Notes: generated from the letters alone by a model not told the origin. Positions 1-29,784 are shown, counted from the first letter of the stretch. The stretch: 64,000 bases of DNA from Candidatus Campbellbacteria bacterium (GCA_016699465.1 CP064977.1:409743-473742); one strand, 5' to 3'. Made by a program: numbers and translations.

Positions 1-2366
1 CAGCCTGCTCGGTAAAGTTCGGACCTAATTTAACTTTGGTCTATGGTAGCAACGGCAGTGGTAAGAGCGGCGTCGGACGACTTTTGTGCAATGCTTGTTT
101 TTCTCGCGGAGAGCGAGAGATATTGCCGAACGTGCGTACTGCCTCCATACCGGGCCCGGAAGCAAAAGCAACATTCGTGATGGATGACGGGGCTGGTAAC
201 CAGAGCGAGATTGGATATACTCTCGGCGACAACAACGATGATCTCAAGTGCTTTTCTGTCTTTGATTCGGAAAGTGTTTTGATACACCTTGACCAGTCCA
301 ACCACGTTAATTTTACACCTGCTCAAATCAAGATTTTCGATAAGGTCGCTGTCACTATTTCAAAGCTTGAAGAAAAACTCACCAACGAGAGAAACGCAAG
401 GAAAAAAGACAATCCTTTTCAGGTGATGTTCCTCGACGACGCAACAACGTCGACGGCCACCTTCTGCAAAGGCATCACTGGTGCAACCAAAGAAGCCGAT
501 TTTCTTAAGCATGCCAATTTCGATGATCAAGTCGACGGATCAAAGATGGATGCGATCCAAAAACAGATCGATGAAAAGAAGAAGCTCGATATCACTAAAA
601 AGAAATCCCAGCTTGCCACCGATCGCCAAAATCTCGGAGCATTCAAAGCCCCACTGCAAAGAGTGACGGACCGGTTTACTGAGACGAAAATGAACGAAGC
701 GAACCAGCTCGTCAAAGATATCCTTGCAAAAAAGAAGATCATCGAGGGTCTCAGCGTCGAGAGTTTTAATGACGGTATTCTGAACACCGTCGGCAGTTCT
801 GAATGGAGAGAGTTGATCGGTGCGGCACGAACTCTGTATGAAGCCGAAAAAGCGGCCAGCGACGATAAAGAGCCAGCACACTGTATGTTGTGCCACCAAA
901 AGCTTACAAAAGATGCCGAGACGCTCTTCCAGAAGTATTGGAAATTTCTTGAGAGCAAAGCCGAGAGCGAGCTTTCCGAATTGACCCGTAAGCAGTCTGC
1001 TCTACTGCAGGATTTCCGATCTGCAAAAACGATGTACCCGAAGTTTCTTGCTACCGATGCCGGTGTAAAAGTTCTTAGTGAGGACGACCCGACTTATTTG
1101 GCAAAGCTAAAGGTTCAATTTACGACGTTGGAAGGTGTGTTGGATGATTGGACTTCGAAAATCGGAAAGCTAAAGGAAGTTAATCGAGACGACGTTCCGG
1201 CCGTTGACCTCGTCAAGATTGATACTCTCGTCACCGCTAAAACGACTGAGGAGTCCAAGCTCGTTGATCCAACCGGCGACATTGCCACGCTTACTGCTCA
1301 ATGGAATGCGCTTAAGCATAAAAAAGATGTCACGGCCGTTAAGGATGCAGGACTGGAATACATCGCATTTCTCGCATGGTCATCACAAGCAAATGGAGTC
1401 AGTTTCTCTGGCATGAAAATGGCGACCACAAAGAAACGAACTGAGTCTTTCCTTGTTGGAGTAGCACAAGATTATAAAGGGGTTTTCAATCAGGAGCTTG
1501 CGAAGCTTGGGTGCGATTTTAATTTGATTATGAATACCAGCGGTGAGCAAGGTACAACGGTAAAGGAGTACCGGCTCGATTTTGCTGAAGACTACAACCC
1601 CAGCCAGATACTCAGCGAGGGAGAGCAGAACGCATGCTCGATCGCAGACTTCTTAACCGAAGTACAGCTCGATAAAAACAATTGCGGTATCGTGTTCGAC
1701 GACCCGGTGACTTCATTGGATCATGAGCGTAAGGACAAGATCGCTCAACGATTGGCAGTTGTTGCCGGAGAGCGTCAGGTAGTAGTTCTTACGCATGACA
1801 TTGTTTTCATGAGCCAGCTTGCCAAGCATGCAGAAAGAAATCAGATCCCAGTAGTTGCACACTGGATGAAGCAGGTTAATGGCATACCGGGGTGCGTTGA
1901 AGACAACACCAGCCCGAAGCTCTCATCGTTAGCAAGTCTGAAGACTGACTCCCAGAATGCTGTAAAGGATTTTGCATCACTCGGTGCAAAAGAACAGGAG
2001 CAAGCTTTGGGTGCAGGGTTCGACTACTTGCGAAGTGCTTGTGAGGCATTGATTGAGGAAGTTCTCTTTGCCGGTACGATCCAACGCTATGACGACCAGA
2101 TCAGGGTTCAGAATCTGGAAGAGGTTATTTTTGACCAAGCTCCTGCTCTCAAGATCGTCGAGCTACACGGTCGACTCTCTGAGGTCTTATTGGCTCACAA
2201 CAGGAGTGATCTACAGAGGGAGAACCAGCCGTCACTCACTGATCTCACTGCAATGCGAAAAGAATTCGACGACCTCGAGAAAGAACTCCGAGAATCACGC
2301 AAAGCGGCCAAAGAAGCGAGAAGTGCTCGCAAAGAGGCAAAAGTAACAGCGAGAGCAGGATGGTAA
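1..2366 (+). CDS. SMC/Rad50-like ABC ATPase with coiled-coil CxxC zinc hook (AAA_13/RloC-like); 5' end runs off the window
   Basis: The frame is open to base 1 and the ORF-track start at 36 is TTG. Walker A GSNGSGKSG near the N-terminus. A long Lys/Glu-rich coiled coil with CMLCH (CxxC) sits mid-protein. ABC signature LSEGEQ, Walker B/D-loop IVFDDPVTSLD and H-loop VLTHD near the C-terminus, followed by a roughly 250-aa C-terminal extension. Confidence 0.6.
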   Translation, partial: ACSVKFGPNLTLVYGSNGSGKSGVGRLLCNACFSRGEREILPNVRTASIPGPEAKATFVMDDGAGNQSEIGYTLGDNNDDLKCFSVFDSESVLIHLDQSNHVNFTPAQIKIFDKVAVTISKLEEKLTNERNARKKDNPFQVMFLDDATTSTATFCKGITGATKEADFLKHANFDDQVDGSKMDAIQKQIDEKKKLDITKKKSQLATDRQNLGAFKAPLQRVTDRFTETKMNEANQLVKDILAKKKIIEGLSVESFNDGILNTVGSSEWRELIGAARTLYEAEKAASDDKEPAHCMLCHQKLTKDAETLFQKYWKFLESKAESELSELTRKQSALLQDFRSAKTMYPKFLATDAGVKVLSEDDPTYLAKLKVQFTTLEGVLDDWTSKIGKLKEVNRDDVPAVDLVKIDTLVTAKTTEESKLVDPTGDIATLTAQWNALKHKKDVTAVKDAGLEYIAFLAWSSQANGVSFSGMKMATTKKRTESFLVGVAQDYKGVFNQELAKLGCDFNLIMNTSGEQGTTVKEYRLDFAEDYNPSQILSEGEQNACSIADFLTEVQLDKNNCGIVFDDPVTSLDHERKDKIAQRLAVVAGERQVVVLTHDIVFMSQLAKHAERNQIPVVAHWMKQVNGIPGCVEDNTSPKLSSLASLKTDSQNAVKDFASLGAKEQEQALGAGFDYLRSACEALIEEVLFAGTIQRYDDQIRVQNLEEVIFDQAPALKIVELHGRLSEVLLAHNRSDLQRENQPSLTDLTAMRKEFDDLEKELRESRKAAKEARSARKEAKVTARAGW

Positions 2367-2375
2367 TAAAAATAT

Positions 2376-3134
2376 ATGTCTGAATACTACACAGCACAAC
2401 GAGTAAAAGGTTTATACGATCCGGCATCGCCGGACCCGTTCAAACTGTCACGATCAAAAATTGATCTCTCTTTGGAGTGCCCTCGGTGTTTCTACTACGA
2501 TCGCAGACTCGGTGTTGGCCGACCACCCGGCTTTCCATTTGCACTTAACTCTGCCGTCGACCACCTACTAAAAGCAGAATTTGATATCCATCGTGTAAAC
2601 GGTTCGAAGCACCCTCTTATAGAAAAGTACGGAATCGATGCACGCCCGATTCCTCATGAGCAATTGGAAAAGTGGCGACATAATTTCACCGGCATTCAGT
2701 ATCTACATCCGGAGACAAACTTTTTAGTATTTGGTGCAATCGATGATCTCTGGCAGAGTCCGGATGGTGATTATATTGTCGTTGACTACAAAGCAACATC
2801 TAAAGCTGAAGACATCACCGAGCTTAATAAAGAATGGCAGAATGGATATAAACGCCAGATGGAGGTGTACCAGTGGTTGCTTCGCAAGAATGGTTTGAAA
2901 GTTTCTAGTACTGGATATTTCGTCTACTGCAACGGCAAGTCTGATCGTGAGGCATTCGATGCAAAGCTCGACTTCGATATCACATTGATTCCTTACACCG
3001 GAGATGATTCATGGGTAGAACAGGCACTTCTGGATGCTCATAAATACTTGAATAATGACTCGCCACCGGCAAGCAAGCCGGAGTGCGATTACTGTTCTTA
3101 CTACGAGACGAGGAAATTAAAAGATAAAAGATAA
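2376..3134 (+). CDS. Cas4-like PD-(D/E)xK nuclease with putative 4-Cys Fe-S cluster
   Basis: PD-(D/E)xK core ...GAIDDLW...DGDYIVVDYKAT. N-terminal CPRC plus C-terminal CDYC cysteines, as in Cas4/AddB/RecB-family nucleases. Starts 10 nt after the ATPase stop. Confidence 0.6.
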   Translation: MSEYYTAQRVKGLYDPASPDPFKLSRSKIDLSLECPRCFYYDRRLGVGRPPGFPFALNSAVDHLLKAEFDIHRVNGSKHPLIEKYGIDARPIPHEQLEKWRHNFTGIQYLHPETNFLVFGAIDDLWQSPDGDYIVVDYKATSKAEDITELNKEWQNGYKRQMEVYQWLLRKNGLKVSSTGYFVYCNGKSDREAFDAKLDFDITLIPYTGDDSWVEQALLDAHKYLNNDSPPASKPECDYCSYYETRKLKDKR

Positions 3135-3147: not shown

Positions 3148-3300
3148 ATGGATGATAAAGACCCAGAGGAAATAATAGAGATTGCAGAGATTGCTCAAAA
3201 TCAAGGAGTCGACATGGACAGTGCTGAAAAAATTAAAGAGGTTATGGACGAGGAGGGTTTAGACGAAGATGAGGCGGCAGAAATTGCTGAAGAGTTATAA
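3148..3300 (+). CDS. small acidic hypothetical protein (about 50 aa)
   Basis: ATG...TAA ORF below the 60-aa track cutoff, translated by eye (MDDKDPEEIIEIAEIAQ...). Highly acidic with an EIAE-type repeat. Confidence 0.2.
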   Translation: MDDKDPEEIIEIAEIAQNQGVDMDSAEKIKEVMDEEGLDEDEAAEIAEEL

Positions 3301-3306
3301 AACACC

Positions 3307-4176
3307 ATGAAAACAAAAATACTTAATTTTTATAGAAATCACCAACGTGCTTTTTATGCTATCGGCATTTTAGTTCTTTTCTTTGTACTCAGTATTGCGA
3401 GCCAAGCAATATATGATGGACTCAAGGGCGAGACGGAAACCTTTTCGGATTCTGGTGATTCATATTGCAATGTTGTTGGTATAAATTTGCACGGTATGTT
3501 AGCGACCTACGTACCAGCACAAGGCAGTGCAGATGATCCGGAAGAATATCAGGCACAGTATGGCGATGCTGTAGGAAGCGAAGATATTGTTTCCACGATT
3601 CGAGGTGCCGATCAGGACGATACGATCAAGGCCATTATGATGGAAGTTGATTCGAGTGGTGGGTATCCGGTAGCCGGCGAGGAAGTGGCAAATGCGCTAA
3701 AAGAAAGCACGAAACCTACTGTAGTCGTGATCAGGCAAAGTGGTCTATCGGCCGCCTACTGGGCATCAACAGGAGCTACGCAAATCTTTGCTTCAAGGAA
3801 TTCTGATGTTGGAAGTATCGGTGTCACTTCATCCTATCTCGACAACGTTGGAAAGAATCAGAAAGACGGAAACGCTTATGTGCAGTTGAGCTCAGGAAAA
3901 TATAAAGACGCAGGAGATCCAGACAGGCCACTTACAGAAGAAGAAAAGCAGTTATTTCTAAGAGATATTAAAATTACTCATCAGAATTTTATAGAAGCCG
4001 TTGCGACTAACCGAAACATTCCGGTCGATCAGGTTAGGGCTATTGCTGATGGTTCCTCTGTTCTTGGAGAGCAAGCAAAATCTCTAAAATTAGTAGACCA
4101 GATTGGTGGATGGTTTGAAGCAGAAAAATACATAGAACAGCAGATCGGAGAGAAGCCAGAGGTCTGTTGGTACTAA
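3307..4176 (+). CDS. sppA: signal peptide peptidase SppA / S49 family protease
   Basis: N-terminal TM segment. S49/ClpP-like motifs (IKAIMMEVDSSGG, SGLSAAYWAS). Confidence 0.65.
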   Translation: MKTKILNFYRNHQRAFYAIGILVLFFVLSIASQAIYDGLKGETETFSDSGDSYCNVVGINLHGMLATYVPAQGSADDPEEYQAQYGDAVGSEDIVSTIRGADQDDTIKAIMMEVDSSGGYPVAGEEVANALKESTKPTVVVIRQSGLSAAYWASTGATQIFASRNSDVGSIGVTSSYLDNVGKNQKDGNAYVQLSSGKYKDAGDPDRPLTEEEKQLFLRDIKITHQNFIEAVATNRNIPVDQVRAIADGSSVLGEQAKSLKLVDQIGGWFEAEKYIEQQIGEKPEVCWY

Positions 4177-4185: not shown

Positions 4186-5196
4186 ATGGCAACACTATTT
4201 TTTATTCTACTTTTAATATCACTTGTTTCTCTCGCTGTCGGTCTTGCGAAGCCGTCAGTATTTCTTAGGTTCATAAAAAAAGAGCTGAGCAGAAAACAAA
4301 TCGCTGGTATTTTTGGAAGTTTGGCAATTGTTTCTTTTATAGGAATTGGGTCTTTTGCACCTAGTCCTGCACTGCAAGATTCAGTCGCTACACAAAATAT
4401 TCCTGTAACAGTTTCTCAAAATGATACACAGGAAGTGCAAGATGCATCGGAAACGTCTGATGCTGTCGATAATAAAAAAGAAGTCGTTAGTGTCGACACA
4501 GGCACCGCCAAAGCAAGTGAGGTGCCTGTCCCTACGCAACAGAAGAGCGATCAGAGTCCATTGTATTCTGTAGTTTCTGTTGTTGATGGAGATACTGTTA
4601 AATTGAGCATAGACGGCACGACACAAACCATTAGACTTATCGGATTGGATACACCGGAGACCGTCGATCCAAGAAAACCAGTGCAATGTTTTGGTAAGGA
4701 AGCATCAAATAAGGCCAAAGAACTTCTCACTGGTAAGAGTGTCAGGTTAGAGGTAGATGCTTCGCAGGGTACCCTCGATAAGTATGGCCGCACACTTGGA
4801 TATATATTTCGAGATGATGGACTCTTTTATAACAAGTACATGATCGAGCAAGGTTTTGCACACGAGTATACCTATAACATCCCCTATAAATATCAATCGG
4901 AATTTAAGGCGGCTGAGAAGTCAGCACGAGAAAATCAGAGAGGTCTATGGTCACCTGAAACTTGTAATGGTGACACCGCGTCTGTTTCTGGATCATCGGA
5001 AACCCAGACTGATCCAGCTACAACATCCTCTGGAGGAAAATTTTATACATCATCTTATTACTCATCAAAATATTACTATCCAGAGCCATGTGATGGATGG
5101 AAAAGTTTGAGCAAAACTTACCTTAAATCTTTTGATTCATTGGAGGCTCTACTTGAAGCATATCCGTCACGGACAATGAGTCCTCAATGTGAATAA
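4186..5196 (+). CDS. membrane-anchored thermonuclease (SNase-like) family protein
   Basis: N-terminal TM segment. SNase-fold motifs GDTVKL, IRLIGLDTPET, DKYGRTLGYIF. Ser/Tyr-rich C-terminal tail. Confidence 0.65.
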   Translation: MATLFFILLLISLVSLAVGLAKPSVFLRFIKKELSRKQIAGIFGSLAIVSFIGIGSFAPSPALQDSVATQNIPVTVSQNDTQEVQDASETSDAVDNKKEVVSVDTGTAKASEVPVPTQQKSDQSPLYSVVSVVDGDTVKLSIDGTTQTIRLIGLDTPETVDPRKPVQCFGKEASNKAKELLTGKSVRLEVDASQGTLDKYGRTLGYIFRDDGLFYNKYMIEQGFAHEYTYNIPYKYQSEFKAAEKSARENQRGLWSPETCNGDTASVSGSSETQTDPATTSSGGKFYTSSYYSSKYYYPEPCDGWKSLSKTYLKSFDSLEALLEAYPSRTMSPQCE

Positions 5197-5334: not shown

Positions 5335-5601
5335 TCAGCCAAAAATATCGATAAACCCTTGAAGTATTGGCAGGTTTAGTAACAGGATCACTGCGACAAC
5401 ACCGGGACCTTTTTTCTTTATCTCTTGGGTTGCAGGGAGTATTATGATCTCAATTTTTCTTTTGATGATCACTTTCAGTGTCTTACTGCAATGTGGACAC
5501 CGCATGGAGAATCGACCCTCGGAGTTGAAAACGGCATCTTTGAAGATGATGTTGGTGCAGTGAGGACAGTTTCCTAGATTGGTTGGTTCCTCTGCGGCCA
5601 T
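5335..5601 (-). CDS. hypothetical zinc-ribbon protein
   Basis: CPHC...CPHC pair. Hydrophobic C-terminus. Confidence 0.3.
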   Translation of the reverse strand: MAAEEPTNLGNCPHCTNIIFKDAVFNSEGRFSMRCPHCSKTLKVIIKRKIEIIILPATQEIKKKGPGVVAVILLLNLPILQGFIDIFG

Positions 5602-5805
5602 AGTTTTGTTCCGGAGGTTCTGATGCTATCCCGATAAGCTATTGGTTCTTTACAGGCAACGGAGAGAACCTCGGCTTAGAAAGAGTGAATTTACATTCAC
5701 GGTTTCCTTATCGGGTTCGGCCGCAGAAATCCTCGATCATGATTATTTTGGTTAGTAAATGATCAATCGTCCGGGTTCGACTACATCCGAACGATCAATC
5801 TAATT

Positions 5806-6348
5806 TCAAGGTTCCTCCGTTGCCGTTCTTGCACGCCTCTTGTCGCCATTCATCGACATCTTGGCGACTAGCACGTCTCTCATCTCCGCTAAGTTATCCC
5901 CAGTTTTTTGATCACGTGCGTAATTCTTTTTAATAAATTCTTTTTCTTTATTCTTGTTAGTAGTTCCTGCTGACTGATCTGACCGGTCTGTATGACCGAT
6001 GTGCAAGTCTGACTGACCGATCTTGTTTGAGTTCGGTCTGTATGACCGGTCTAGTTTCAACAGGTAGTACACATTGTGGTAGCGTCGCCGGCTCTTTCGG
6101 ATGATCTCAAGCTTGATGAGTTGCCGGATACCTCTTTGCACGCTCGAAATGCTTGCACCGATCTTGTCGGCAATGGTCTGGTGGGACGGAAAACAAAAAC
6201 CCTCCTGGTTAGCGTGCTCTGCCAGGCAGTTATAAATAGCGATGCCGATTGGACCTATTGTGCTTCCGTATTCATCGAGAAGCACCTTGCTGATCCAATA
6301 CCAGTCACCTTTGCGAAGATCCCTGATTGTTATTTTTTCATCCGGCAT
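5806..6348 (-). CDS. helix-turn-helix protein, replication-initiator/DnaD-like (element-borne)
   Basis: Winged-HTH-like segment FCFPSHQTIADKIGASISSVQRGIRQL. Start taken at the internal Met (MPDEK). Palindromic repeats lie inside its 3' half. Confidence 0.4.
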   Translation of the reverse strand: MPDEKITIRDLRKGDWYWISKVLLDEYGSTIGPIGIAIYNCLAEHANQEGFCFPSHQTIADKIGASISSVQRGIRQLIKLEIIRKSRRRYHNVYYLLKLDRSYRPNSNKIGQSDLHIGHTDRSDQSAGTTNKNKEKEFIKKNYARDQKTGDNLAEMRDVLVAKMSMNGDKRRARTATEEP

Positions 6349-6552
6349 ACACGAGAAATAAAGGCGTGGCGAGGGTCGACCAAAACCCAGACCGCACCTT
6401 ATCGATCCTCTCAATGAGGTGGCAGACCATTGAGGGGAGAGTAAGAGGCGGTCTACCATTCTCTAGATTTGGGTAGAGCCCGATCGATGTTATCCATCGC
6501 TCGGCAGAAATCTCTTCGTATAATTGGATTTTCAAGTTCCCGGATGGTGAAG

Positions 6553-6831
6553 TTACTCAAGAGGCTCTCCCGTCGCCAAAGAAGTTCCTTCCTCGTTGGC
6601 GGCTTCCGAGTCATCCGTGTCCATATCCTCCGGATAAGTCTCTTGATCAGGATTTTCGTTGTCATGTTTTTTGATGTGATCCATGTGATCCAAAAGCATG
6701 AACGCCATACGCTTAAAGCCAGCGTGGACTTTCCAAACTTCTTGTCGGGACGGCTCTCGGCCGAGTACATCGGCGAGTGCGTTGCGAGTGAGCTCAACAA
6801 GAGCTTCCTCATCTTTATCTGGTTTGGACAT
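6553..6831 (-). CDS. hypothetical acidic protein
   Basis: ORF with an acidic C-terminus. No recognisable motif. Confidence 0.25.
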   Translation of the reverse strand: MSKPDKDEEALVELTRNALADVLGREPSRQEVWKVHAGFKRMAFMLLDHMDHIKKHDNENPDQETYPEDMDTDDSEAANEEGTSLATGEPLE

Positions 6832-6884
6832 GCGGTGGTTTGGTTCATAGAAGTGACCTCACACTTTTACTGACCCCACCTTGC

Positions 6885-7091
6885 CTAAGGCAAGAAAACT
6901 TCCTCTACTCTGACCCCGAGAGCCAAAGCGATCCGCTGGGCTGTTTCGAGATTCGGCCGCTTCCGGCCGGTCTCGTACCTGCTGATCGCAGTGTTGTGCT
7001 TAAAACCAAGAATTCGGGCTAGTTGATATTGCGTTAGCCCTTTCTTGATTCGAAGGTCACGGAGTTTTATATTCACTGGTGATTTGTTCAT
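6885..7091 (-). CDS. XRE-family HTH transcriptional regulator (Cro-like)
   Basis: LTQYQLARILGFKHNTAISRYETGRKRP HTH. Divergent from a CI-like repressor gene. Confidence 0.7.
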   Translation of the reverse strand: MNKSPVNIKLRDLRIKKGLTQYQLARILGFKHNTAISRYETGRKRPNLETAQRIALALGVRVEEVFLP

Positions 7092-7247
7092 AGGTTTAAC
7101 TTTTAGACCTCTATAGTCATATTAAGCAATTTTGCTTACGAGGTCAATATATTGGGGTGTGGATAAGCAAAGTTGCTTAATCTTTACTAATTTGCTATCA
7201 TGTAAGCAATAAGGTCGGCATTAATCGATTAAGCAAAATCAACAAAT
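7092..7247. promoter_or_regulatory. divergent promoter/operator region of a Cro/CI-like switch
   Basis: Two copies of the palindrome TAAGCAA-N2-TTGCTTA plus extra TAAGCAA half-sites, between divergently transcribed HTH genes. Confidence 0.45.
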
Positions 7248-7964
7248 ATGTCATTTGGTTCATATCTAAAACAACAAAGAGAATCGAATAACTGGAGTAT
7301 CAAAGAGATCGCAGAACGGCTCGGCTTTTCCTCAAGTTACGTGAGCCAGTTGGAGAATGGGACTCGTATGCCGTCTAATAAACAGTTGGCGGTTTTTGCT
7401 AAGGCTTACCAGCTTCCCGAAGAGGAAGTGAAGAAGCATTGGGCAGAGGGCAAGATGCAAAAGGTCAGCATGCAGACTGACTACAAATTCAATCTCAAGG
7501 ATGTCGGCGAGAAGCGCGTACATGAAGCCGCCAACAAACTCGAAGAAGGATTGGAGGAATTGAAAAAGAGTTTTTCCGGTGATGGTCATTTTAAATTGCC
7601 GGTGCTTGTAGCGATTCCTATTGATGATCTCGACGGTCATCTAAGTCGAACGAGCGACTTTGTTTTATTGCCAAAAGATAATGTGGTTTCAGGTCACCGA
7701 GTGTTTGGACTCCGTGTATCCGATCTCACACTCCCCGATGCGGCCATTCTTTCTGGAGACTTCATCATTCTCGATGCCGACATTGCCCCAAAGAATGGCG
7801 ACATCGTGATCATGAGCACACCGGATGGTCTGGTGATGACTTATTACCAAGAGCGGGGCGATCACCTTGAGCTTCGGCCAGAGAAGGAAGGCTTCAAAAA
7901 AACCTACCATCTCAAGGAGAGTAAGATGATAGGCCGATTGGTTTACCACATCAAAAAATATTAA
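7248..7964 (+). CDS. CI/LexA-like repressor (N-terminal XRE HTH plus C-terminal S24-peptidase-like domain)
   Basis: N-terminal HTH (IKEIAERLGFSSSYVSQLENG). C-terminal LexA/S24-like segment (GLRVSDLTLPDAAILSGDFIIL...NGDIVIM). Confidence 0.6.
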   Translation: MSFGSYLKQQRESNNWSIKEIAERLGFSSSYVSQLENGTRMPSNKQLAVFAKAYQLPEEEVKKHWAEGKMQKVSMQTDYKFNLKDVGEKRVHEAANKLEEGLEELKKSFSGDGHFKLPVLVAIPIDDLDGHLSRTSDFVLLPKDNVVSGHRVFGLRVSDLTLPDAAILSGDFIILDADIAPKNGDIVIMSTPDGLVMTYYQERGDHLELRPEKEGFKKTYHLKESKMIGRLVYHIKKY

Positions 7965-8060
7965 CGAACAGGGCTCTCCGCAAGGTGAGCCCTCAAGCTA
8001 TTTTAGGAGGGTGGTAATAAAGAAATTATAAAAAATTAGTAAAGAATTTATAAACTAACC

Positions 8061-9644
8061 ATGAACTACTTAATTTACGGCCGTGTCTCTACCTCTCGTC
8101 AGGCCGAACGAGAATTGAGTATTCCGGCTCAAGTGAAAGCGTGTCAGAAGTACGGCATGGATCACGGTTGGAATCTTGCACCTGATGGCATCTACGAGGA
8201 AAAGGGTGAATCAGCTCGAACGGTTGAGCGTCCTCAGCTTCAGAAAATGCTTCATCGGGCAAAGACTGATAACAAGGTCGATGCAATCTTAATGCACAAA
8301 CTTGATCGTATGTGTCGCAACGTTGCGGACTACGCCGCAATAAAGATGATGCTCAAAAAGCACGACGTCCGACTGATCTCGGTGGTCGAGCAATTTGATG
8401 AGTCTTTCTCCGGAGAGCTGGTCGAGAACATCATGTCATCGATCGCTCAATGGACGTCCCAGAACATCAGCTGGGAGGTCAGGAAGGGTCTTAAAGAGGC
8501 CGTAGAGCGTGGCAGGTTCCCCGGATACGCACCAATCGGCTATATGAACGATCGGAAGACCAAATCCCTGATCGTGGATACTGTTCGAGCACCATATGTG
8601 AAGCTGGGGTTTGAGCTTTATGCGACAGGCAAATTTTCTTACTACACACTCGGTGACGAATTGGCAAAACGAGGTCTCAAGAGCAAGGCTGGCAAACGTG
8701 TCTCAAAAAAAGGCGTTGAGCGGATGCTTCAAAATTCGATCTACTACGGTCTTATAAAAACACGATCAGCTACCAATCAGGCAAACTTCCCGTCACTCAT
8801 CACTAAGAAACTGTTTGATGACGTACAGGAGATCATCGCCCAGCACAATCACTATGCCGATCGGTCTCGCAAACACACCTTTCCGCTTACTGGCTTTATG
8901 CGATGTGGTTACTGCGGTTCTATGTTGAGTGGTCAGGTAAAAAAGGGTCATCTGTACTATAACTGCTCTCACCGGCGTGATGCCAAATGTCCGGAAAGAA
9001 AGTACACACGATCAGAGCTTATCGAAGAGCAGGTCGTGGCGTATCTCTCACGAGTCGAGTTGCCACCTAAGTTCAAGACGGTCTTGGATGCGTACTTCCA
9101 GCACTTCGCAAAAGAGCGTATGGATCAGGAGGAAAACGAACGCAAAAGCATTAAGCATGACCTGATCAGAGTGCAACAGCAGATCCGTAATATTGTCGTG
9201 GATCGCTCAAAACGCATCATTGACGCAGAGGTTTTTATAAAGATTCAGGACGAGCTTCTTAAGGAGAAAGAGATGTATCAAGATCGCTTGGCCGAGCTCG
9301 AGGGTAAGTCAGACAAATTCGTGCAGAAATTCAATGAGCTTCTCGACTTCACGGATCACGCCGATGAAGTGTACCAAAAGAGTGGCACTAGTCAGAAGCG
9401 AACGGTACTAAAGCTTTGCATTGAGGGGTTCACAGTCAGAAATCAAAAACTGACGCCGATATGGACGCCAGTCTTTGATGTTCTTATGGACTTACAATTG
9501 TCCAAGTTCGATCCCCCAAAAGTCGGCGGCAAGGGTTCTAAAACCGCCTCAAAAACCCTTGCCGTACCTAAGGTTCTAACTTGGACATCTGGCGGAGAGG
9601 GAGGGATTCGAACCCTCGGACCAGTTTCCCGGTCAGCATCTTAG
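8061..9644 (+). CDS. large serine recombinase (integrase)
   Basis: N-terminal resolvase domain (YGRVSTSRQ, catalytic Ser), recombinase domain and a Cys-rich zinc ribbon (CGYCGS...CSHRRDAKCP). The 3' end overlaps the tRNA-Ser 3' end. Confidence 0.8.
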   Translation: MNYLIYGRVSTSRQAERELSIPAQVKACQKYGMDHGWNLAPDGIYEEKGESARTVERPQLQKMLHRAKTDNKVDAILMHKLDRMCRNVADYAAIKMMLKKHDVRLISVVEQFDESFSGELVENIMSSIAQWTSQNISWEVRKGLKEAVERGRFPGYAPIGYMNDRKTKSLIVDTVRAPYVKLGFELYATGKFSYYTLGDELAKRGLKSKAGKRVSKKGVERMLQNSIYYGLIKTRSATNQANFPSLITKKLFDDVQEIIAQHNHYADRSRKHTFPLTGFMRCGYCGSMLSGQVKKGHLYYNCSHRRDAKCPERKYTRSELIEEQVVAYLSRVELPPKFKTVLDAYFQHFAKERMDQEENERKSIKHDLIRVQQQIRNIVVDRSKRIIDAEVFIKIQDELLKEKEMYQDRLAELEGKSDKFVQKFNELLDFTDHADEVYQKSGTSQKRTVLKLCIEGFTVRNQKLTPIWTPVFDVLMDLQLSKFDPPKVGGKGSKTASKTLAVPKVLTWTSGGEGGIRTLGPVSRSAS

Positions 9645-9679
9645 CAGGATGCTGCATTCGACCGCTCTGCCACCTCTCC
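9591..9679 (-). tRNA. tRNA-Ser(GCU), class II with long variable arm, CCA encoded
   Basis: Folded by hand: acceptor GGAGAGG/CCTCTCC, 3-bp D-stem, anticodon arm GCATC-CTGCTAA-GATGC (anticodon GCT), long variable arm, T-arm GAGGG-TTCGAAT-CCCTC, G73, CCA. Confidence 0.8.
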
Positions 9680-9787
9680 AGGTGTCTCGGAAAAGGCTCT
9701 GCCACCCTTCCAGTTCGCACAATGTACCACGTTTTTGACGCTATTTCTACAGACATTCACCTATTCATTCTATAGAATAGAGATGCT

Positions 9788-10588
9788 GTGAGTATAAAAA
9801 AGTTTCGAAAAACAGTATGGAGTTATTACCGCCAACACGGCCGTATATTGCCATGGAGAAAAACACGCGACCCCTACAAAATCCTTATGTCGGAAATCAT
9901 GCTCCAACAAACACAAGTAGACCGTGTTGTTTCAAAGTACACAGCGTTTACGAAACAATTCCCAAATTTCAAAACACTCGCAAATGCAAGAACGTCGGAT
10001 GTTATACAAGCATGGCAAGGTCTCGGATATAATCGCCGAGCACTCAATCTCCAGCGCTGCACGCAAGAAGTCGTACAAAAATACAAGGGCAAACTTCCAT
10101 CATCGTATACTGAGCTAGTTTCCCTTCCTGGAATTGGACCATACACCGCAGGTGCGATCATGGCATTTGCATACAACAAACCTATTGCATGTATTGAGAC
10201 AAATATTCGAGCAGTGTACATCCATCATTTTTTCTCTCCTACAAAAAAAGTATCTGACAAAGAATTACTACTGTTGATTGAACAAACACTTGATACACAA
10301 AATCCACGCGAATGGTACTGGGCGCTCATGGATTATGGTTCCTATCTCAAAAAAACACTTCCCAACCCTGCTCGACGCAGTACACACCACACAAAACAAA
10401 AAATGTTTAAAGGTTCTAATCGACAGTTGCGCGGAAATATACTGAAACTAGTATCTCAAAAAAGTATCTCTGAAAAAAAACTTTTCGCTGAAATACAAAG
10501 AAAGCCAATTGAAATACGGGGCGCTCTTACAGCACTTACAAAAGAAGGATTTATACAAAAGAAAGGGGCAAACATTTCTCTTATATAA
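9788..10588 (+). CDS. HhH-GPD base-excision glycosylase, MutY/Nth-like
   Basis: LPWRKTRDPYKILMSEIMLQQTQV and HhH GIGPYTAGAI motifs. Confidence 0.7.
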   Translation: MSIKKFRKTVWSYYRQHGRILPWRKTRDPYKILMSEIMLQQTQVDRVVSKYTAFTKQFPNFKTLANARTSDVIQAWQGLGYNRRALNLQRCTQEVVQKYKGKLPSSYTELVSLPGIGPYTAGAIMAFAYNKPIACIETNIRAVYIHHFFSPTKKVSDKELLLLIEQTLDTQNPREWYWALMDYGSYLKKTLPNPARRSTHHTKQKMFKGSNRQLRGNILKLVSQKSISEKKLFAEIQRKPIEIRGALTALTKEGFIQKKGANISLI

Positions 10589-10632
10589 GAAAAGGCCGTG
10601 TTCGGGGTCGAAACCCCGAACACGGCCTGCTG

Positions 10633-11478
10633 TCAGAACGTCCAGATTGTCGAGACGGTCGGCGTCGCCGGGATGGCGAATCGCCCACTTCGGCTGTCGC
10701 TCTCCGACCGGAGGAGCGATAGCTTCAGCTTCATCAGCCGCCCCTGATACGAAACACTCGGCTTGGCGTAGATTGAATATCGTTCCTTGTCGGAAGCGAT
10801 CACGCCACCCGACATCCCGAGGACCCACGGCCCCTTCTCGTACACGTACGACATCTCGCCGTACGCGTACAGACGATCGCCGTCGCCGTAGGCCGTATGG
10901 TAAACGCCGACATACTGCCACCCGAGCTCGGTTGACCATCCACCACGAAGTGTTCGACTGAACGAACCCAGCGGGCCGATGAAGGTCGAGGACTTTCCGC
11001 CTCGGTACGGCGGAGCGTAAAAAATCTCTACGCCCGCCTTCCCCGACCACTTACCCAGAGAAAACTTCCTCTGAATGATGGGATCGATGAAGTGGGCCAT
11101 GACGCCGGCATCGTGCGTCCCGAGGGCTTTGACACCCAAGAGGAACACGTCCCAGTTGTCGTCAGCGTACGTGAGCGACAACCCCGCGATGGGATCGTCG
11201 CTCGCCACGGAGCCGAAGGACTTGAACGCGGATCGCGAAGACCAACTGGTCTCCAGCGTCCACAGATCGTCCTTCTCGAGCACCGTGACTGGAGCGATGT
11301 TCACCCCGGTCACCAGGTTCGTGGTCATGGCGAGCTGGTCGCCGTTGACCTCCTGACCATGCGCCGCGATGGCACAGGCCAGAGGCCAGCCCACCAACAG
11401 CGCGAGGACGATCCACAGTAGAGGCTGTGCGGTCTTCTTGTTGACTCGAGCAACGAGGGCCGTGTTCAGACTCTTCAC
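10633..11478 (-). CDS. outer-membrane beta-barrel-like protein (high-GC island)
   Basis: Signal peptide, alternating beta-strand pattern, C-terminal ...WTF aromatic terminus. About 62% GC versus about 43% in the flanking genes. Confidence 0.4.
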   Translation of the reverse strand: MKSLNTALVARVNKKTAQPLLWIVLALLVGWPLACAIAAHGQEVNGDQLAMTTNLVTGVNIAPVTVLEKDDLWTLETSWSSRSAFKSFGSVASDDPIAGLSLTYADDNWDVFLLGVKALGTHDAGVMAHFIDPIIQRKFSLGKWSGKAGVEIFYAPPYRGGKSSTFIGPLGSFSRTLRGGWSTELGWQYVGVYHTAYGDGDRLYAYGEMSYVYEKGPWVLGMSGGVIASDKERYSIYAKPSVSYQGRLMKLKLSLLRSESDSRSGRFAIPATPTVSTIWTF

Positions 11479-11610
11479 TTTGCCACCTCCTAGGTTCCCG
11501 TTCGACGATGTGTCGAAACGTGTTTTCTGTATATTAGTATAGCAAAAATAACGTATTTGTCAACACCTAGAGATCTGTTTGTCAAAATACGCTTGTAATT
11601 CTTATACAAA

Positions 11611-12200
11611 TTACAAGTGGCTTGCTTCAAGAGCCCGATTAATCTCAATGAGCGCCCTACGATGTGTGGGAGCAAATAAAGAAATGTGCTCAGAGGAGAA
11701 GTGGTACGGTGGGGACAAATGTTGTGTATATGCAGAATCACCTTGGACGTAACCGAGTTCATGGAGAATGCGCAATACCAGAAGAACTTCAAATGAAGCT
11801 ATATTGTCTTGTGTGACCTCAGGACCAGCGAGTGCAGAGAGTCCATCCCACACCAAATCAAACAAAACACTTCCTTGTTCTTCATCGACGATAAGTCGAC
11901 GAACAAGGTGGAGTACCCGAATGGCAAGCATTCTTTTTGTCTATCTTCATGTTCAAAAAAAATTGATGAAACAGGCGTAACGTTAGTGATACGCCACCCA
12001 TCACGAGATCGGACAAGCGATACATCTGACACAGAAGAAAATTGCAAACCATATCGATGACGAGAACGTCCTTCGCGTGATGACTGACAACGCGCAAACA
12101 CCACGCCCATATCGGCGGTAAACAAACGATAGGTACGACTCGCCTCACCGACGTTATACGCGCCGAGAACAATTGCCTTTGTATGATGCTTGGAATACAT
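11611..12200 (-). pseudogene. recO: recO, disrupted by a frameshift near 11900-11935 (or sequencing error)
   Basis: N-terminal OB-fold region (KAIVLGAYNVGEASRTYRLFT...) in one frame. RecO C-terminal region (LVRRLIVDEEQ...FEVLLVLRILHELGY) in the overlapping frame. Confidence 0.45.
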
Positions 12201-12328
12201 AAAACTAAATTCGAAATACGAATATCGAAATTCGAACCAAATTCAAAATCCTAAGTCTTAAAGTTTTAAACATTTTGAACATTCGCATATTCTTGCTTGT
12301 TTCGAGTTTCGTGCTTCGATATTCGTGC

Positions 12329-15300
12329 TTAGTGTATATTGAAAATATAGGATTCCTCCCCAGTGTCTCCAATGGAAACAGAGAGATCTGTAAGATTTGT
12401 TGTCTTCATGAGTGCTTCTTTGTATTCCTCAATAAGTTTTTTTCCGTCTTCGTTTGTAACAACAGAAAGTGCCGGAGCATCTGACGCAGTCAATCCTACT
12501 GTTTTTCTAAAATCTTGAATAGCACGCATCAAATCACGGACACTTCCTTCTTTCTGCAATTCAGGCGTCACCACGGTATCAAGCTCAACATCCCAACCTG
12601 CGTCCTCTTTGAAAAAGACTTCTTTTACATTTACTTCATCGGAAATCAACGCAACAAGTTCTGGAAACTTTTGTAGCGTAAGATTTCCACCTCGAAGTGT
12701 CAGCGATGCGAGTGGCTGACGCACTTTTACTCCTGCTGTCATACGTGCCTCAAGAGCCCGCGACGCAACATCTCGTGTTTTCTGCATGTTTTTTACAATC
12801 TCTTTTTCCTTCTTTGATTCATGACCAAATATTCCAGTATCTGCTTTTGGCCACGTCTCCAAGTGCACGCTTTCTAACTCACCGCCAATGGAAGTATATA
12901 TTTCTTCAGCAAAGAACGGTGCAAATGGTGCCAGTATCTGAGCAAGTGTTTTCAGTACATGGTGTGTCGTTGCAAGTGCCTGTTCCCTATCCTCAACATT
13001 TTCTGACTTAAATCTCTCTCGTGAACGGCGAATGTACCACGTAGAAAGATCCTGAACAAAATCTCGAATTGCACGCGTAGGTTCAAAAACATGGTACGTC
13101 TCAAGACCTTGCGTTACATCAGCAACAAGCTCATTGAGTCGCGTCAAAATCCACACATCAAGAACACGTTTGGAGACTGGAGACTGGAGACTGGAGACTG
13201 GAGCTTCATCCTTGTACATCTCATAGAACTTCACCACATTGCGAGTAATCGTAAATACTTTTTTTGATACCTCATCAACTGTTTTTTCATCAAAGTTTTT
13301 TGAATCACCTGGTTGATTCACGGAATACATCCAAAAACGAATGACATCAACTCCGTATTTTGCTATTGCCTCCCATGGATTCACCACGTTACCAATCGAC
13401 TTACTCATCTTTTTACCTTTTGCATCCAAAATGTGTCCAAGGCAAATAACATTTTCAAATGCGCGCCCTTTCCCCATGAGAGCACCCACAGCATGCAGTG
13501 TGTAAAACCACCCGCGCGTCTGATCAATTGCTTCAGAAATGTACTGCGCAGGATATCCTTGCCCATCAATCCATTCTTTATTTTCAAAAGGATAGTGATC
13601 TTGTGCAAATGGCATAGCGCCTGAATCAAACCATACGTCCATCACTTCAGGAGTACGCTTCATGCGTGCAGTACATTTTGGACACGTCACCTCTACCTCA
13701 TCGATGTATGGCTTGTGTAAATCAATATCAAAGGTGTCATTGTGTGGAAGTGGTACAAAGCCAAATTCAAGCACGTGTGCAAGTTCAAGTGGTGTTGTTG
13801 CCATAATACGCTCAGCACGCGCATCATCTGCACCTTCCAAAATTGCTAGAACAGTAGAAAAACCGATTCCGTGAGTGACAACAATAATGTGTTCATCCTC
13901 ATGCCGACTATCAATGTCATACAAAAACTCTGCAAAACGTCGTCGAGCATCTGCATAACTTTCCCCATTAGGAAGCGCATCAGTATATCTATATCCATTC
14001 GCTTTTCTAAACGCAAACACTTCTTTGTGTTGTTTGCCATTAAAATCACCATACCCGAGCTCTCGCAATCGCTCATCAACAACAATGGCATCCGGAGATA
14101 TACCGAGCTCTTGTGCAAGAATATTTGCCGTCTCACGAGTTCGCACAAATGGCGACGTGTATAGTGTCGTCACTTTTTCTTTCTGAATTTTTTTACTTGC
14201 GTGCACAACCTGCTCTTTTCCTTTCTCCGTTATGTGATCTGGTCCATTTGGATCTGCACTCGCAGTGTCTAACACATTATTCTGCGCTTCTCCGTGCCGA
14301 ACAAACGTAAATGTATTTCCACGGGACTTTGTAATCTTTTTGAGATGTTCAATAGATGATACGACTTCCGTGTGATGACAGTGCTCACAATTCCAGACAG
14401 GTAATGGAGTTCCCCAGTACCTATCACGAGAAAACGCCCAATCTTTTACCTCACGAAGCCATTCACCAAAACGTCCTTCTTTAATATGTTCTGGTACCCA
14501 ATGAATTTTTTATTTTCCTTAACTAATTCATCACGCAACTCCGACATGCGAATGTACCACGAATCCCGCGCATAGTAGATAAGTGCCGTATGACAGCGCC
14601 AACAGTGTGGGTATGTGTGTTCAAATTTTTCTTTCTTAAATAAAAGATTTCGTCCTGCCAAATCTTTAATAACTTCAACGGCAGTTGATTCATCACGCAC
14701 AAAGAGTCCTTCATAGAGCCCTGTGCCTTGTACAAAATGCCCCGTCTCATCTACAAGATGCCACTTCGGCAATCCAACCTTGTTTCCCAATTCAAAATCT
14801 TCCTGTCCGTACATCACCGCAGTGTGCACAATACCTGTACCGTCTGTTGTCGTCACAAAATCCGCAGAGTACACCTTGTACGCATTCTGCATTTTTTCTT
14901 TTTCAGGGCCAGAAATAAGCGTGTTCAAAAATGGAAAAAGTGGTTCGTACGTAAGACCAATAAGTGCTTCACCTAAACATTCTTCAACAACTTCATACCC
15001 TTCACCCAACACAGAAAGTCGATCCCTTCCAAGCCACAAAAATTCACCACCATGAGAAACTTTTACATACGAAATTTTTTCTCCAATAGCAAGACCAACG
15101 TTTCCAAGAAGTGTCCACGGCGTTGTCGTCCATGCAAGTAAGTATGTATTTTCTTCTCCTACAAGTGCAAACTTCACATACACCGAAATATCTTTTACAT
15201 CTTCATATCCCTGCGCGAGCTCATGGCTTGAAAGTGCTGTCCCACAACGCGGACACCACGGGAGCACTTTGTAATCCTTATAGAGAAGTTCTCGCTTGTG

Positions 15301-27292: not shown

Positions 27293-28129
27293 TCATTCCG
27301 ATATCTCTGGTGACTGATACTTAACACATAGCAATAAATTATGAAAAAGCATTGCAATAGCAATTGGGCCAACTCCTCCTGGAACAGGGGTCATCACTGA
27401 AGCTTTTTGTGCACATTCTGGATCTGCATCCCCCACCACCTTGCCCCCCGCCTCGCTCGTGCCCGCGTCGAGAATAACCACGCCATCTTTAATCATGTTG
27501 GGCTTGAGCACGTGTGGCGCGCCGGCACCCAAAACAAGGATATCTGCGTTGTGTGTGTACGCTTCGAGCGTGTCACCGCGTTCGACCACGGCGACACGCG
27601 CACCCCAATGAGACAGCCATGTTGCCATGGGACCACCCACAAGCAACCCGCGTCCAACAACAACCGCGTTTTTCTCCGCAACGTCAACTCCTGCATGCTC
27701 CAAGATTTCTTTGCACGCGCCAACCACAGGTGGAAGGAGTGACATATCGCCGTTTTCAAAACGGGTTCGTGCCTCCGCGCCAAGTCCATCGACATCGTGC
27801 GACGCCGGAATCGTGTCTTGTATCTTTTTGAAATCAATGTGCGCCGGCAAGGGCAACTGTACGATGATGCCGTTGCTCACAGCAACAGCCTCGCGCACGT
27901 GTGCAACCAACGCATCGGTTGTCGTTGATTCAGGAAGCTCGAGCACCCGCACATCAACACCAACCGATTCACCGGTTCGTTTTTTGATCTTGATGAACTG
28001 TTGCGTTGCGGCATCAGACGAGAGCACAAACACGCTCAAAAGCGGCCTCTCAACAAGCGTTGAGACCTTGTGTGCAAGCGATTCGGTTATCTCACGCGCA
28101 ATAGCGCGTCCATCAATGAGCATATGCAT
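27293..28129 (-). CDS. folD: bifunctional methylenetetrahydrofolate dehydrogenase/cyclohydrolase
   Basis: FolD catalytic and NADP-binding motifs (GGVGPIAIAML). Confidence 0.85.
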   Translation of the reverse strand: MHMLIDGRAIAREITESLAHKVSTLVERPLLSVFVLSSDAATQQFIKIKKRTGESVGVDVRVLELPESTTTDALVAHVREAVAVSNGIIVQLPLPAHIDFKKIQDTIPASHDVDGLGAEARTRFENGDMSLLPPVVGACKEILEHAGVDVAEKNAVVVGRGLLVGGPMATWLSHWGARVAVVERGDTLEAYTHNADILVLGAGAPHVLKPNMIKDGVVILDAGTSEAGGKVVGDADPECAQKASVMTPVPGGVGPIAIAMLFHNLLLCVKYQSPEISE

Positions 28130-28150
28130 ATTCTACCATTCATCACACAT

Positions 28151-28212
28151 ATAAAAATGAAACCCCCGTGCAGTGAGCACGGGGGGGCAAAGCTAGACAT
28201 CAGGCAGCGCGA
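28151..28212 (-). terminator. terminator module copy 1 (downstream of gene A)
   Basis: cccccgtgctcactgcacggggg hairpin plus tttcattttt on the minus strand. Near-identical to the module at 29044-29103. Confidence 0.55.
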
Positions 28213-28886
28213 GTGTGAGAGAACACGAGACGCCCGGCGTCCCAAGCGAGGCCGTGGTCGACCTTGCCGGCGCCGACGACCCAGCCGCCGCTGCCGGCGT
28301 GCCAGAGGACGTTCACGAGCCGCAAGACGCCCTTGGCGTCCCGAACCCGGAACAGGTTCGCCCTGCCGTCGACGTGGAGCTTGCCACGCCGACCCTGACC
28401 CTGACGCTTCATCAGCGCCCAGATCTGGCCGCACGTGGCCTCCTCGACACCTTCGCCGAGCGCGGTGTTGATGTCCGCGCAGTAGGCGGTGCGGGTGAGC
28501 TCGTTGCGCCGGAGCGCGAGCGGAGGCTGCGCCTCCTCGACGAGACCGCCGAAGCAGCTCGTGAAGAAGCCGTCGATGTACCCCACCTTCACGCCGTCCG
28601 TCTTGCCCACCTTGAAGTGAGCGGAGACGTCGAAGCTCGGGATGGCGGCGATCTTCACCGTGTCGAGGTAGCGGAAGAGCGGCGGAACGGCCGGCTTCTC
28701 AATCTCGACGATGCGATGCGTGCCGTCGAGCACGCACTCGACATTCTGCAGCTTGCCGTCGACGTAACCCTGCACGATCCGACCGACAACAACAGGATCG
28801 AGAGACCCCTCCCTGACCCGTCGGAACCAGTCGTGTTGCTGTCGGGCAAACTTGCCCAATGCCGTGTCGTCTGCGACGTGAGTCAT
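28200..28886 (-). CDS. hypothetical protein A (GC-rich island)
   Basis: RBS AAAGGAGAG then 5 nt then ATG (MTHVADD...). About 64% GC. No recognisable domain. Confidence 0.45.
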   Translation of the reverse strand: MTHVADDTALGKFARQQHDWFRRVREGSLDPVVVGRIVQGYVDGKLQNVECVLDGTHRIVEIEKPAVPPLFRYLDTVKIAAIPSFDVSAHFKVGKTDGVKVGYIDGFFTSCFGGLVEEAQPPLALRRNELTRTAYCADINTALGEGVEEATCGQIWALMKRQGQGRRGKLHVDGRANLFRVRDAKGVLRLVNVLWHAGSGGWVVGAGKVDHGLAWDAGRLVFSHTRAA

Positions 28887-28912
28887 GACGACTCTCCTTT
28901 CATGCCCGCAGG

Positions 28913-29036
28913 TCTCCATTGACCGCGGTTGTGAAAGCTCGTATTTAAGCCCTCAAAACCACGGCCAATTGATTGGTTTAGAAAGAACACACGCACCAGT
29001 AGTACGCGTAAAAGTGGGGGTTGTCAATGTTGGTGA
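28913..29036 (-). repeat. about 120-bp promoter/5'UTR module, copy 1 (upstream of gene A)
   Basis: Near-identical to 29785-29907. Contains minus-strand TTGACA (29022-29027) and internal CCATTGAC-type inverted half-sites. Confidence 0.7.
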
Positions 29037-29043
29037 GATTTTT

Positions 29044-29103
29044 ATAAAAATGAAACCCCCGTGCAGTGAGCATGGGGGCAAAGCGAGACATCAGACAGCG
29101 CGA
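29044..29103 (-). terminator. terminator module copy 2 (downstream of gene B)
   Basis: Same hairpin plus T-tract as 28151-28212. The homology starts about 11 nt inside the coding 3' end. Confidence 0.55.
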
Positions 29104-29741: not shown

Positions 29742-29784
29742 ATTTTCTCCTTGCCCAGTATCAGTGGGCACAAGGGCCGCGAAT

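Follow-up and report, generated by a model that had tools for sequence, protein, structure and literature searches.

At the left end of a 64,000-nucleotide (nt) stretch of DNA from a Candidatus Campbellbacteria bacterium (GCA_016699465.1 CP064977.1:409743-473742; the whole stretch is hereafter called the window), a gene for a Rad50-like ABC ATPase is followed directly by a gene for a Cas4-like nuclease, and the question that this locus raises is whether the two form a dedicated defense system or are neighbors of separate origin. A sequence-only reading of the same DNA had taken them for a two-gene ATPase-plus-nuclease module that matched no named system. The comparisons reported here point elsewhere: in the account that we consider reasonably probable, the ATPase is a single-gene, RloC-like candidate of the PDC-S06 defense family that sits in a restriction-modification (R-M) operon on a prophage, and the nuclease is a separate backbone gene of that element, bordering a hotspot of defense cargo. 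What the locus encodes is then probably an R-M-linked abortive-infection module of the RloC/PrrC kind in a prophage defense hotspot, rather than a new two-gene system. Positions follow the numbering of the window strand throughout (Table 1), and an overlapping 8.6-kb contig (L001), identical to the window over the 3486 nt that the two share, supplies the DNA to the left of the window edge.

Family and architecture of the ATPase

Both genes proved to be genuine open reading frames (ORFs) with the motifs first read in them, all at the expected coordinates and with hidden Markov model (HMM) E-values down to 1e-129. For the ATPase, a PADLOC run also supplied a family name. Model PDLC04891 of PDC-S06 aligned with the protein from end to end (E=4.2e-129; residues 6-862 on positions 3-857 of the 858-position profile, i.e., 855 positions), and three more PDC-S06 models matched it at 1e-62 to 1e-97. 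The PDC systems are a set of 145 candidates found by "guilt-by-embedding", and they owe their candidacy to genes that are nested inside R-M, BREX, or DISARM loci (Payne et al.; bioRxiv 10.1101/2024.01.29.577857); the supplementary tables of that paper hold no description of PDC-S06, which PADLOC classes as a single-gene candidate (S series). Models for Lamassu, Gabija, Septu, and PARIS components (LmuB, GajA, PtuA, and AriA) gave matches at the level of the P-loop only (E=1e-3 to 1e-4), the match to mad3 of MADS (2.6e-14) was confined to the ABC motifs, and none of the partner genes of these five systems was present at the locus. Judged by its sequence, the ATPase is thus a further member of a catalogued candidate family with an RloC-like design. 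It agrees with PDC-S06 at the family level, in its full-length HMM match, and in the habit of lying within or beside R-M genes, whereas it differs in that this copy comes from a prophage of the candidate phyla radiation (CPR) and stands behind a type II-like cassette instead of a type I system.

The ATPase ORF (frame 3) enters the window from beyond its left edge and closes with a double stop (2364-2369). Its start codon lies 286 nt to the left of the edge, as seen in L001, and the complete protein has 883 amino acids (aa), of which the window encodes the last 787. In an alignment of 79 PDC-S06 members (25-100% identity) drawn from 185,579 species-representative genomes, a 95-aa N-terminal domain (L001 4864-5148) with an invariant W20 and the motif KPYWEQYVWK precedes Walker A in every member, and we regard this domain as a candidate docking or sensing module. 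Because the window edge cuts the gene and the whole protein carries this domain in front, Walker A is not near the N-terminus, as it had seemed, but occupies residues 111-118. Besides W20, the residues invariant in the alignment are K117, C390, C393, S634, G636, D662, D663, H694, R773, E777, and H828, and position 822 is either Ser or Cys.

In the AlphaFold (AF2) model of the full protein (pLDDT 78), a three-helix bundle forms the N-terminus, residues 203-597 make up a helical insert that splits the ABC head, and a helical C-terminal domain (C-domain) comes last; the CxxC motif sits at the center of the insert, where a loop links helix 362-381 to helix 399-413. Foldseek neighbors of this model were Rad50, SMC, JetC, SbcC, RecN, and AriA, with Rad50/SMC best (7zr1, E=3e-9). 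A profile built from 17 homologues and searched against the structure database also returned Rad50 as the closest solved protein (4.5e-8 over the stretch from the signature to the H-loop) and matched Rad50 hook structures weakly at the CxxC (6zff, E=0.015; 1l8d, E=0.056), and the Pfam families matched by the protein were AAA_13 and SMC_N.

Likeness of the ATPase to RloC and PrrC

Behind H694 the protein continues for about 150-190 aa, short of the roughly 250-aa extra domain that had been expected from the sequence, and this part contains the C-domain, a putative HEPN-like effector (Table 1). Its R773-x3-E777-x50-H828 triad, kept in 79/79 members, satisfies the motif Arg-X3-Glu-X36-52-His by which RloC is defined (Davidov & Kaufmann 2008, PMC2610378), and the landmarks of the ATPase follow the same linear order as those that mutagenesis has located in Geobacillus RloC, namely K44, C291, D572, and R692/E696/H737. 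Between these landmarks, the spacing from Walker A to the hook is 247 residues in RloC versus 273 in the window ATPase, that from the hook to Walker B 281 versus 270, and that from Walker B to the Arg 120 versus 110. The ABC motifs, the CxxC of the helical insert, and the C-terminal R/E/H triad are invariant in 79/79 members, and the ATPase displays every motif and architectural feature that RloC is recognized by. Of the Rad50/SbcC/RloC/LmuB architecture named in the sequence-only reading, the Rad50/RloC type is therefore borne out by sequence, fold, and motifs, whereas a full-length match to LmuB was not obtained. There are differences from RloC, a wobble-nucleotide-excising anticodon nuclease, as well: R-M linkage is common to both but is rare for RloC and frequent for PDC-S06, and PDC-S06 adds the conserved N-terminal three-helix domain, which Geobacillus RloC seemingly does without, judged by the position of K44 compared to K117.

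PrrC, the tRNA-Lys anticodon nuclease of the EcoprrI type Ic locus, likewise has an ABC ATPase fused to a C-terminal domain of the R/E/H RNase type, and the logic of a backup to R-M that we propose for the PDC-S06 ATPase is the same. The two differ in size and setting, in that PrrC has ~400 aa, no coiled-coil/hook insert, and a type Ic hsd host locus, whereas the window ATPase has 883 aa with an insert of ~400 aa and its R-M genes are not type I. Membership in PrrC was rejected on the size, the insert, and the non-type-I locus, although the ATPase may still work like PrrC. Nor did a direct link from the C-domain to PrrC or RloC emerge: an exhaustive phmmer search against 1.84 billion representatives found the C-domain only in ~870-aa proteins of the same architecture, and the shorter matches were fragments of PDC-S06 proteins rather than PrrC-sized proteins. 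No solved RloC or PrrC structure for comparison surfaced in the PDB searches with the ATPase.

The ATPase in restriction-modification operons

Four co-directional genes precede the ATPase gene (L001 102-4859) with gaps of 1-5 nt and form one operon with it, of which the ATPase is the last gene. In order, they encode a 340-aa and a 542-aa N6/N4 DNA methyltransferase, both clear N6_N4_Mtase matches, followed by a 360-aa protein and a 337-aa protein. The 352 homologues of the 360-aa protein are without exception annotated as hypothetical, and the protein carries the invariant residues E146/E150...P177-D178...E232-x-K234 (PD...ExK). Read most simply, the cassette would combine two methylases with two endonuclease subunits in a type II R-M system that has an asymmetric site, and the 360-/337-aa pair together with the methyltransferases probably makes up a type II restriction enzyme (heterodimeric or asymmetric-site) that has not been described. 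With the ATPase as the last gene of an R-M operon, the likeliest logic of the locus shifts from an ATPase plus nuclease to R-M plus an RloC/PrrC-like backup. The GC content is 0.39-0.43 in the cassette, 0.47 in the ATPase gene, and 0.445 in the nuclease gene, differences that are modest, and we rejected their use as a marker of mosaic origin.

Elsewhere in the family, hsd genes lie within about 3.5 kb of the ATPase in ~21/79 loci, often on both sides (e.g., L009, L028, L041, L049, L072, and L079), which is the placement between hsd genes known from PrrC. When 80 genome loci were searched iteratively for type I subunits, HsdM turned up in 17, HsdS in 16, and HsdR-like proteins in 22, mostly encoded on the same strand as the ATPase. 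In Bradyrhizobium icense, a relative lies directly upstream of hsdM-hsdS-hsdR; in another genome, genes for DUF2130, a PLD-SNF2 helicase, and an MmeI-like methylase come after the relative; and the relative stands alone in two further genomes, one acidobacterial and one from the Thermodesulfobacteriota, the latter with a serine recombinase nearby.

Within CPR metagenomes, close relatives of the ATPase end three different types of R-M module, i.e., the window's own four-gene cassette (L001, and L089 at 84% identity), a type I system with a Fic gene in front of it (L088, 92% identity), and an N6/N4-methyltransferase-ResIII pair (L114, PDC-S06 E=4e-176). The Fic gene in L088 (2452-3528) is of the Fic/DOC-helix-turn-helix (HTH) kind and lies upstream of the type I R-M and PDC-S06 array. 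Fic/Doc genes have been described beside RloC-like ABC-HEPN genes in R-M neighborhoods (Anantharaman et al. 2013), and the array of Fic, R-M, and ABC ATPase in L088 matches those neighborhoods.

The nuclease and the defense hotspot in front of it

The motifs of the nuclease are CPRC, D123, D137-Y-K139, Q161xxxY165, and CDYC, and the residues C35, C38, D123, D137-Y-K139, Q161, Y165, C237, and C240 are kept in homologues down to 22% identity. Its description as a Cas4/AddB-like Fe-S nuclease held for the PD-(D/E)xK core (D...DxK...QxxxY) and the four cysteines, both of which it has in common with Cas4, but not for the arrangement of the cysteines, which is 2+2 (CxxC...CxxC) instead of the 1+3 of canonical Cas4/AddB. 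In Pfam it matched PDDEXK_1 (2e-14) and Cas_Cas4 (6.5e-5; score 23.5 against a gathering threshold of 22.7), and the PADLOC Cas4 model matched at 4e-11, whereas the NCBIfam cas4 model TIGR00372 scored 34.8, below its cut-off of 65. A CRISPR-associated Cas4 identity was rejected on this last score, the 2+2 cysteines, and the lack of cas genes beside the nuclease in the 16 neighborhoods examined. Neither the single sequence nor a profile found a sequence relative in the PDB. Among phage families, the best match was PHROG 31195 (4e-15), a family of no assigned function, followed by the Cas4-like PHROG 1706.

The nuclease has more than 8000 homologues, of which the best 120 are 72-94% identical and come from Paceibacterota, Taylor-, Wolfe-, Magasanik-, and Andersenbacteria; in prophage-like elements of CPR bacteria the identity is 53-94%. 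Identity of 72-94% over CPR lineages suggests horizontal spread of the gene, and a chromosomal housekeeping gene of CPR was rejected as its identity. Ten IMG/VR contigs carry the nuclease, one of which (L121) has a large terminase (3.5e-92). Because of the PHROG matches, these viral contigs, the integrase, repressor, and terminase neighbors, and the high identity across CPR classes, we regard the nuclease as a prophage backbone gene, probably a recombination or end-processing exonuclease. The fallback offered in the sequence-only reading, an element-encoded recombination nuclease, comes close to this apparent nature of the gene, for which its phage-family matches and backbone neighbors speak; as a description of the ATPase it is taken up below.

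What lies in front of the nuclease was surveyed in 15 distinct contexts. The nuclease is always the last gene of a co-directional array, the upstream stop codon usually falls 3-9 nt before its ATG (~48 nt in L124; an overlap in L120), and the similarity between loci starts exactly at this ATG (window 2376). The genes upstream are PDC-S06 in the window, L088, and L114; a Ppl-like PHP-ABC ATPase in L112, L115, and L122; a SMODS cyclase with a SLATT effector (CBASS) in L117; an AAA_15/OLD-TOPRIM protein with UvrD (Gabija-like) in L121; HerA in L118; a reverse transcriptase in L125-L134, where a TIR gene lies downstream of the nuclease; DUF3644/PDC-S19 in L119; an SNF2 helicase with an unknown 407-aa protein in L120; an EcoRI-like methylase with GmrSD-HNH in L124; an MmeI-like methylase with DUF4268 in L113; and a methyltransferase-ResIII in L116. 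Counted together, at least 12 kinds of defense gene with no relation to one another precede the nuclease. This cargo includes R-M of types I, II-like, III-like, IIL, and IV, and at least 11 of the 15 contexts hold R-M-type genes. There is, in short, a sharply bounded hotspot of defense cargo directly upstream of the nuclease in CPR prophage-like elements, of which no description was found in the literature searched. Comparable hotspots exist in temperate phages and their satellites, such as P2 and P4, where a conserved backbone gene flanks a slot of swapped defense systems. The CPR case has the conserved flank gene, the swapped and unrelated defense content, and the sharp junctions in common with them, and differs in that it occurs in CPR/Patescibacteria elements and has a Cas4-like nuclease as its anchor.

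Are the ATPase and the nuclease a pair?

Seen from the ATPase, the dedicated two-gene module did not recur: among 86 other ATPase-bearing loci searched with tblastn and jackhmmer, a nuclease homologue stood beside the ATPase in one, L024 from a member of the Dehalococcoidaceae, where a 22% identical protein is encoded directly downstream. In that locus (5541-14207), a WYL-SF1 helicase-DUF559 protein, the PDC-S06 ATPase, the distant Cas4-like nuclease, and an RNase_T exonuclease stand in a row, the ATPase and nuclease genes overlap by 4 nt, and the order of ATPase and then nuclease recurs in no other non-CPR locus of this set. In L089, the window's cassette and ATPase are followed by no nuclease in the next 2.6 kb; in L115, the same methyltransferases and 360-/337-aa proteins (97%) and the nuclease (91%) occur with a Ppl-like ATPase in place of PDC-S06. 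From these two loci and the variable contexts of the nuclease it follows that the locus is put together from three modules, the R-M cassette, the ATPase, and the nuclease, which are shuffled independently of one another. The proposal of an antiphage or abortive-infection candidate on an integrative element is upheld for the ATPase.

Several observations weigh against a single-gene, RloC-like ATPase with a separate nuclease behind it. No experimental validation of PDC-S06 was found in the literature searched, where the papers that name the family list it and no more. Pfam, NCBIfam, and PADLOC models end at the H-loop and showed no direct sequence homology between the C-domain and the nuclease domains of PrrC or RloC; the Pfam AAA_13 match ends at profile position 584-585 of 713, short of the C-domain, the PADLOC PrrC model aligns with the Walker B region only (E about 1e-3), and the canonical HEPN motif Rx4-6H is not evident in the C-domain. 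The 360-aa and 337-aa proteins have no Pfam, PADLOC, or PDB sequence match, and we infer their R-M nature from motif and context. Finally, the nuclease gene begins 9 nt (not ten, as first counted) downstream of the ATPase gene on the same strand, and an ABC ATPase precedes the nuclease in 6/15 CPR contexts and again in the Chloroflexi locus L024, so that some functional coupling of the two proteins is possible.

The pair of the sequence-only reading would be a dedicated sensor-effector system like Lamassu, Gabija, or PARIS, in which the ATPase senses infection and the Fe-S nuclease degrades DNA. The short spacer on a shared strand with no terminator in it would suit such a system, as would the three CPR contexts with PDC-S06 immediately upstream of the nuclease, the three further ones with a Ppl-like ABC ATPase, and the L024 nuclease, which keeps all catalytic and Cys residues across a 4-nt overlap with its ATPase. 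Yet 85/86 of the other ATPase loci do without the nuclease, L089 has the cassette and the ATPase and lacks it, and the nuclease in turn follows CBASS, Gabija-like, HerA, reverse transcriptase, GmrSD-like, DUF4268, DUF3644, and ResIII genes with no such ATPase. Moreover, the ATPase already has a conserved effector-like C-domain of its own, PDC-S06 is a single-gene candidate in PADLOC, Ppl is a single-gene system, and the nuclease matches phage protein families, all of which makes a dedicated pair very unlikely. Alternatively, the hotspot as a whole could have the nuclease as a common accessory, i.e., a DNA-end-processing or -degrading enzyme that is co-transcribed with any upstream cargo and serves it, and not the ATPase specifically, for example by finishing off phage DNA after restriction if small CPR genomes have no RecBCD/AddAB. 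Its fixed place on the strand of the cargo gene that precedes it, at a distance of 3-9 nt (up to ~48 nt), the R-M-type genes in at least 11 of 15 contexts, and its very high conservation across CPR lineages agree with this idea, but CBASS with a membrane effector or HerA have no obvious need of a nuclease, the gene matches phage families and sits among phage backbone genes, and in L089 the R-M cassette and the ATPase of the window occur together in its absence; we consider a shared accessory unlikely. Distinctly unlikely, in our judgment, is the wider proposal that the nuclease is a shared executor or processor of inserted cargo, or a promoter of cassette exchange at its own 5' border, in a CPR-wide "plug-in" locus where the recurrent order of ABC ATPase and nuclease reflects a real partnership.

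A further alternative takes the ATPase for a housekeeping or element-encoded repair and recombination protein of the SbcC/Rad50 type, with the nuclease in place of SbcD/Mre11. The head and hook indeed match Rad50 and SMC best, both in structure and in sequence, the ATPase and Rad50/SbcC each have an antiparallel helical insert that turns at a CxxC hook, and the nuclease is RecB-like. However, no Mre11/SbcD phosphoesterase adjoins the ATPase, whose neighbor is a PD-(D/E)xK nuclease that is not conserved with it; the insert has about 400 residues compared to the much longer coiled coil of Rad50; and the C-domain with its R/E/H triad has no counterpart in Rad50 or SbcC (PMC2610378). The ATPase gene is also embedded in R-M operons and defense islands, and its distribution is sporadic and horizontally transferred, with 65% identity between Campbellbacteria and Bradyrhizobium. 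A repair role of this kind is hardly credible.

Proposed mechanism and significance

Under the favored account, that of an RloC-like single-gene ATPase tied to R-M, the R-M operon and the ATPase would be cargo of a prophage-like element integrated at tRNA-Ser in Candidatus Campbellbacteria. The Rad50-like head and the hook may monitor DNA breaks, DNA, or the state of the neighboring restriction enzyme. Should restriction be broken or blocked by a phage, an ATP-dependent switch would free the C-terminal RNase, which would cut tRNA anticodon loops or other RNA, and translation would halt. This RNase action would be an abortive-infection backup to restriction, through which a phage that escapes restriction is aborted. 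The nuclease would stand outside the ATPase machine, being co-transcribed with the cargo and marking the 3' border of the hotspot. The mechanism is modeled on RloC and PrrC (PMC2610378, PMC3458546, PMC3710099), and we infer the RNase activity, the RNA target, the activation signal, and the role of the nuclease, whereas the gene structures, the family assignment, the conservation of the motifs, the linkage to R-M, the independent shuffling of the modules, and the prophage setting were observed.

Rejecting a system of ATPase plus Cas4-like nuclease spares cloning effort on the wrong unit, and the natural swaps (the cassette with and without the ATPase, the ATPase with and without the nuclease) define what the functional units are. 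The PDC-S06 candidate family gains a concrete mechanism proposal, namely an ABC-hook-R/E/H design whose landmarks are invariant in 79 relatives and which is found with three kinds of R-M. CPR/Patescibacteria are often said to be poor in defense systems, yet their prophage-like elements carry a nuclease-bordered hotspot, and the nuclease as its anchor gene could serve to mine new defense genes from uncultivated bacteria.

The prophage element and the remainder of the window

The integrative element recognized in the sequence-only reading was confirmed by the serine integrase that abuts tRNA-Ser (Table 1). The order of nuclease, acidic protein, and S49 peptidase recurs in L088, L114, and L118, and the lysogeny and replication backbone of the window is also present in L114 and L115. 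Given the integrase at tRNA-Ser, the regulators, the S49 protease, the IMG/VR contigs, and the terminase of L121, the region belongs to a prophage or an element derived from a phage, of which it is the end next to the integrase.

Table 1 Features of the ATPase-nuclease locus and the adjoining prophage genes, in window numbering
Feature	Position	Strand	Basis or remark
3' part of PDC-S06-type ABC ATPase, residues 97-883 of 883	1..2366	+	ORF, translation, L001
Walker A GSNGSGKS, G111-S118	45..68	+	Motif reading; K117 invariant 79/79
CMLC (C390xxC393) where the helical insert (residues 203-597) turns; putative zinc hook	882..893	+	Invariant 79/79
ABC signature LSEGEQ	1611-1628	+	S634, G636 invariant 79/79
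Walker B/D-loop IVFDDPVTSLD	1689-1721	+	D662, D663 invariant 79/79
H-loop THD	1791-1799	+	H694 invariant 79/79
Helical C-domain, residues 735-883; putative effector, HEPN-like RNase of the anticodon-nuclease kind	1917..2363	+	
C-domain residue R773	2031-2033	+	
C-domain residue E777	2043-2045	+	
C-domain residue S822	2178-2180	+	
C-domain residue H828	2196-2198	+	
Cas4-like RecB-family PD-(D/E)xK nuclease, 252 aa	2376..3134	+	Pfam, PHROG, invariant residues
Acidic 50-aa protein	3148-3300	+	Downstream of nuclease
S49 peptidase	3307-4176	+	PHROG 53 head maturation protease, 7e-39; Pfam
Staphylococcal-nuclease homologue	4186-5196	+	Pfam
Replication-initiator-like gene	5806-6459	-	PHROGs
Cro-like HTH	6885-7091	-	PHROGs
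CI-like repressor with S24 domain	7248-7964	+	PHROGs
Serine integrase	8061-9644	+	PHROG 95, 8e-99; 3' end overlaps tRNA-Ser(GCT)
tRNA-Ser(GCT)	9590-9679	-	ARAGORN, Rfam

The S49 peptidase has an N-terminal hydrophobic segment, and the staphylococcal-nuclease homologue has such a segment together with a Ser/Thr-rich linker; the two may have a phage function or be further cargo.

Outside the element, the window holds a 23S rRNA gene (38306-41234, minus strand) and a 5S rRNA gene (36651-36758, minus strand) with three tRNA genes between them. A 16S rRNA gene was found nowhere in the 64,000 nt, which implies that the rRNA genes are unlinked or interrupted. At 37113-37263 (minus strand), an Rfam tRNA match spans 151 nt (41.6 bits) with no ARAGORN call; an intron or a large insertion may interrupt a tRNA gene here. 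The GC content rises to 0.57-0.60 at 28001-30000 and 56001-60000, compared to a background of 0.42-0.47.

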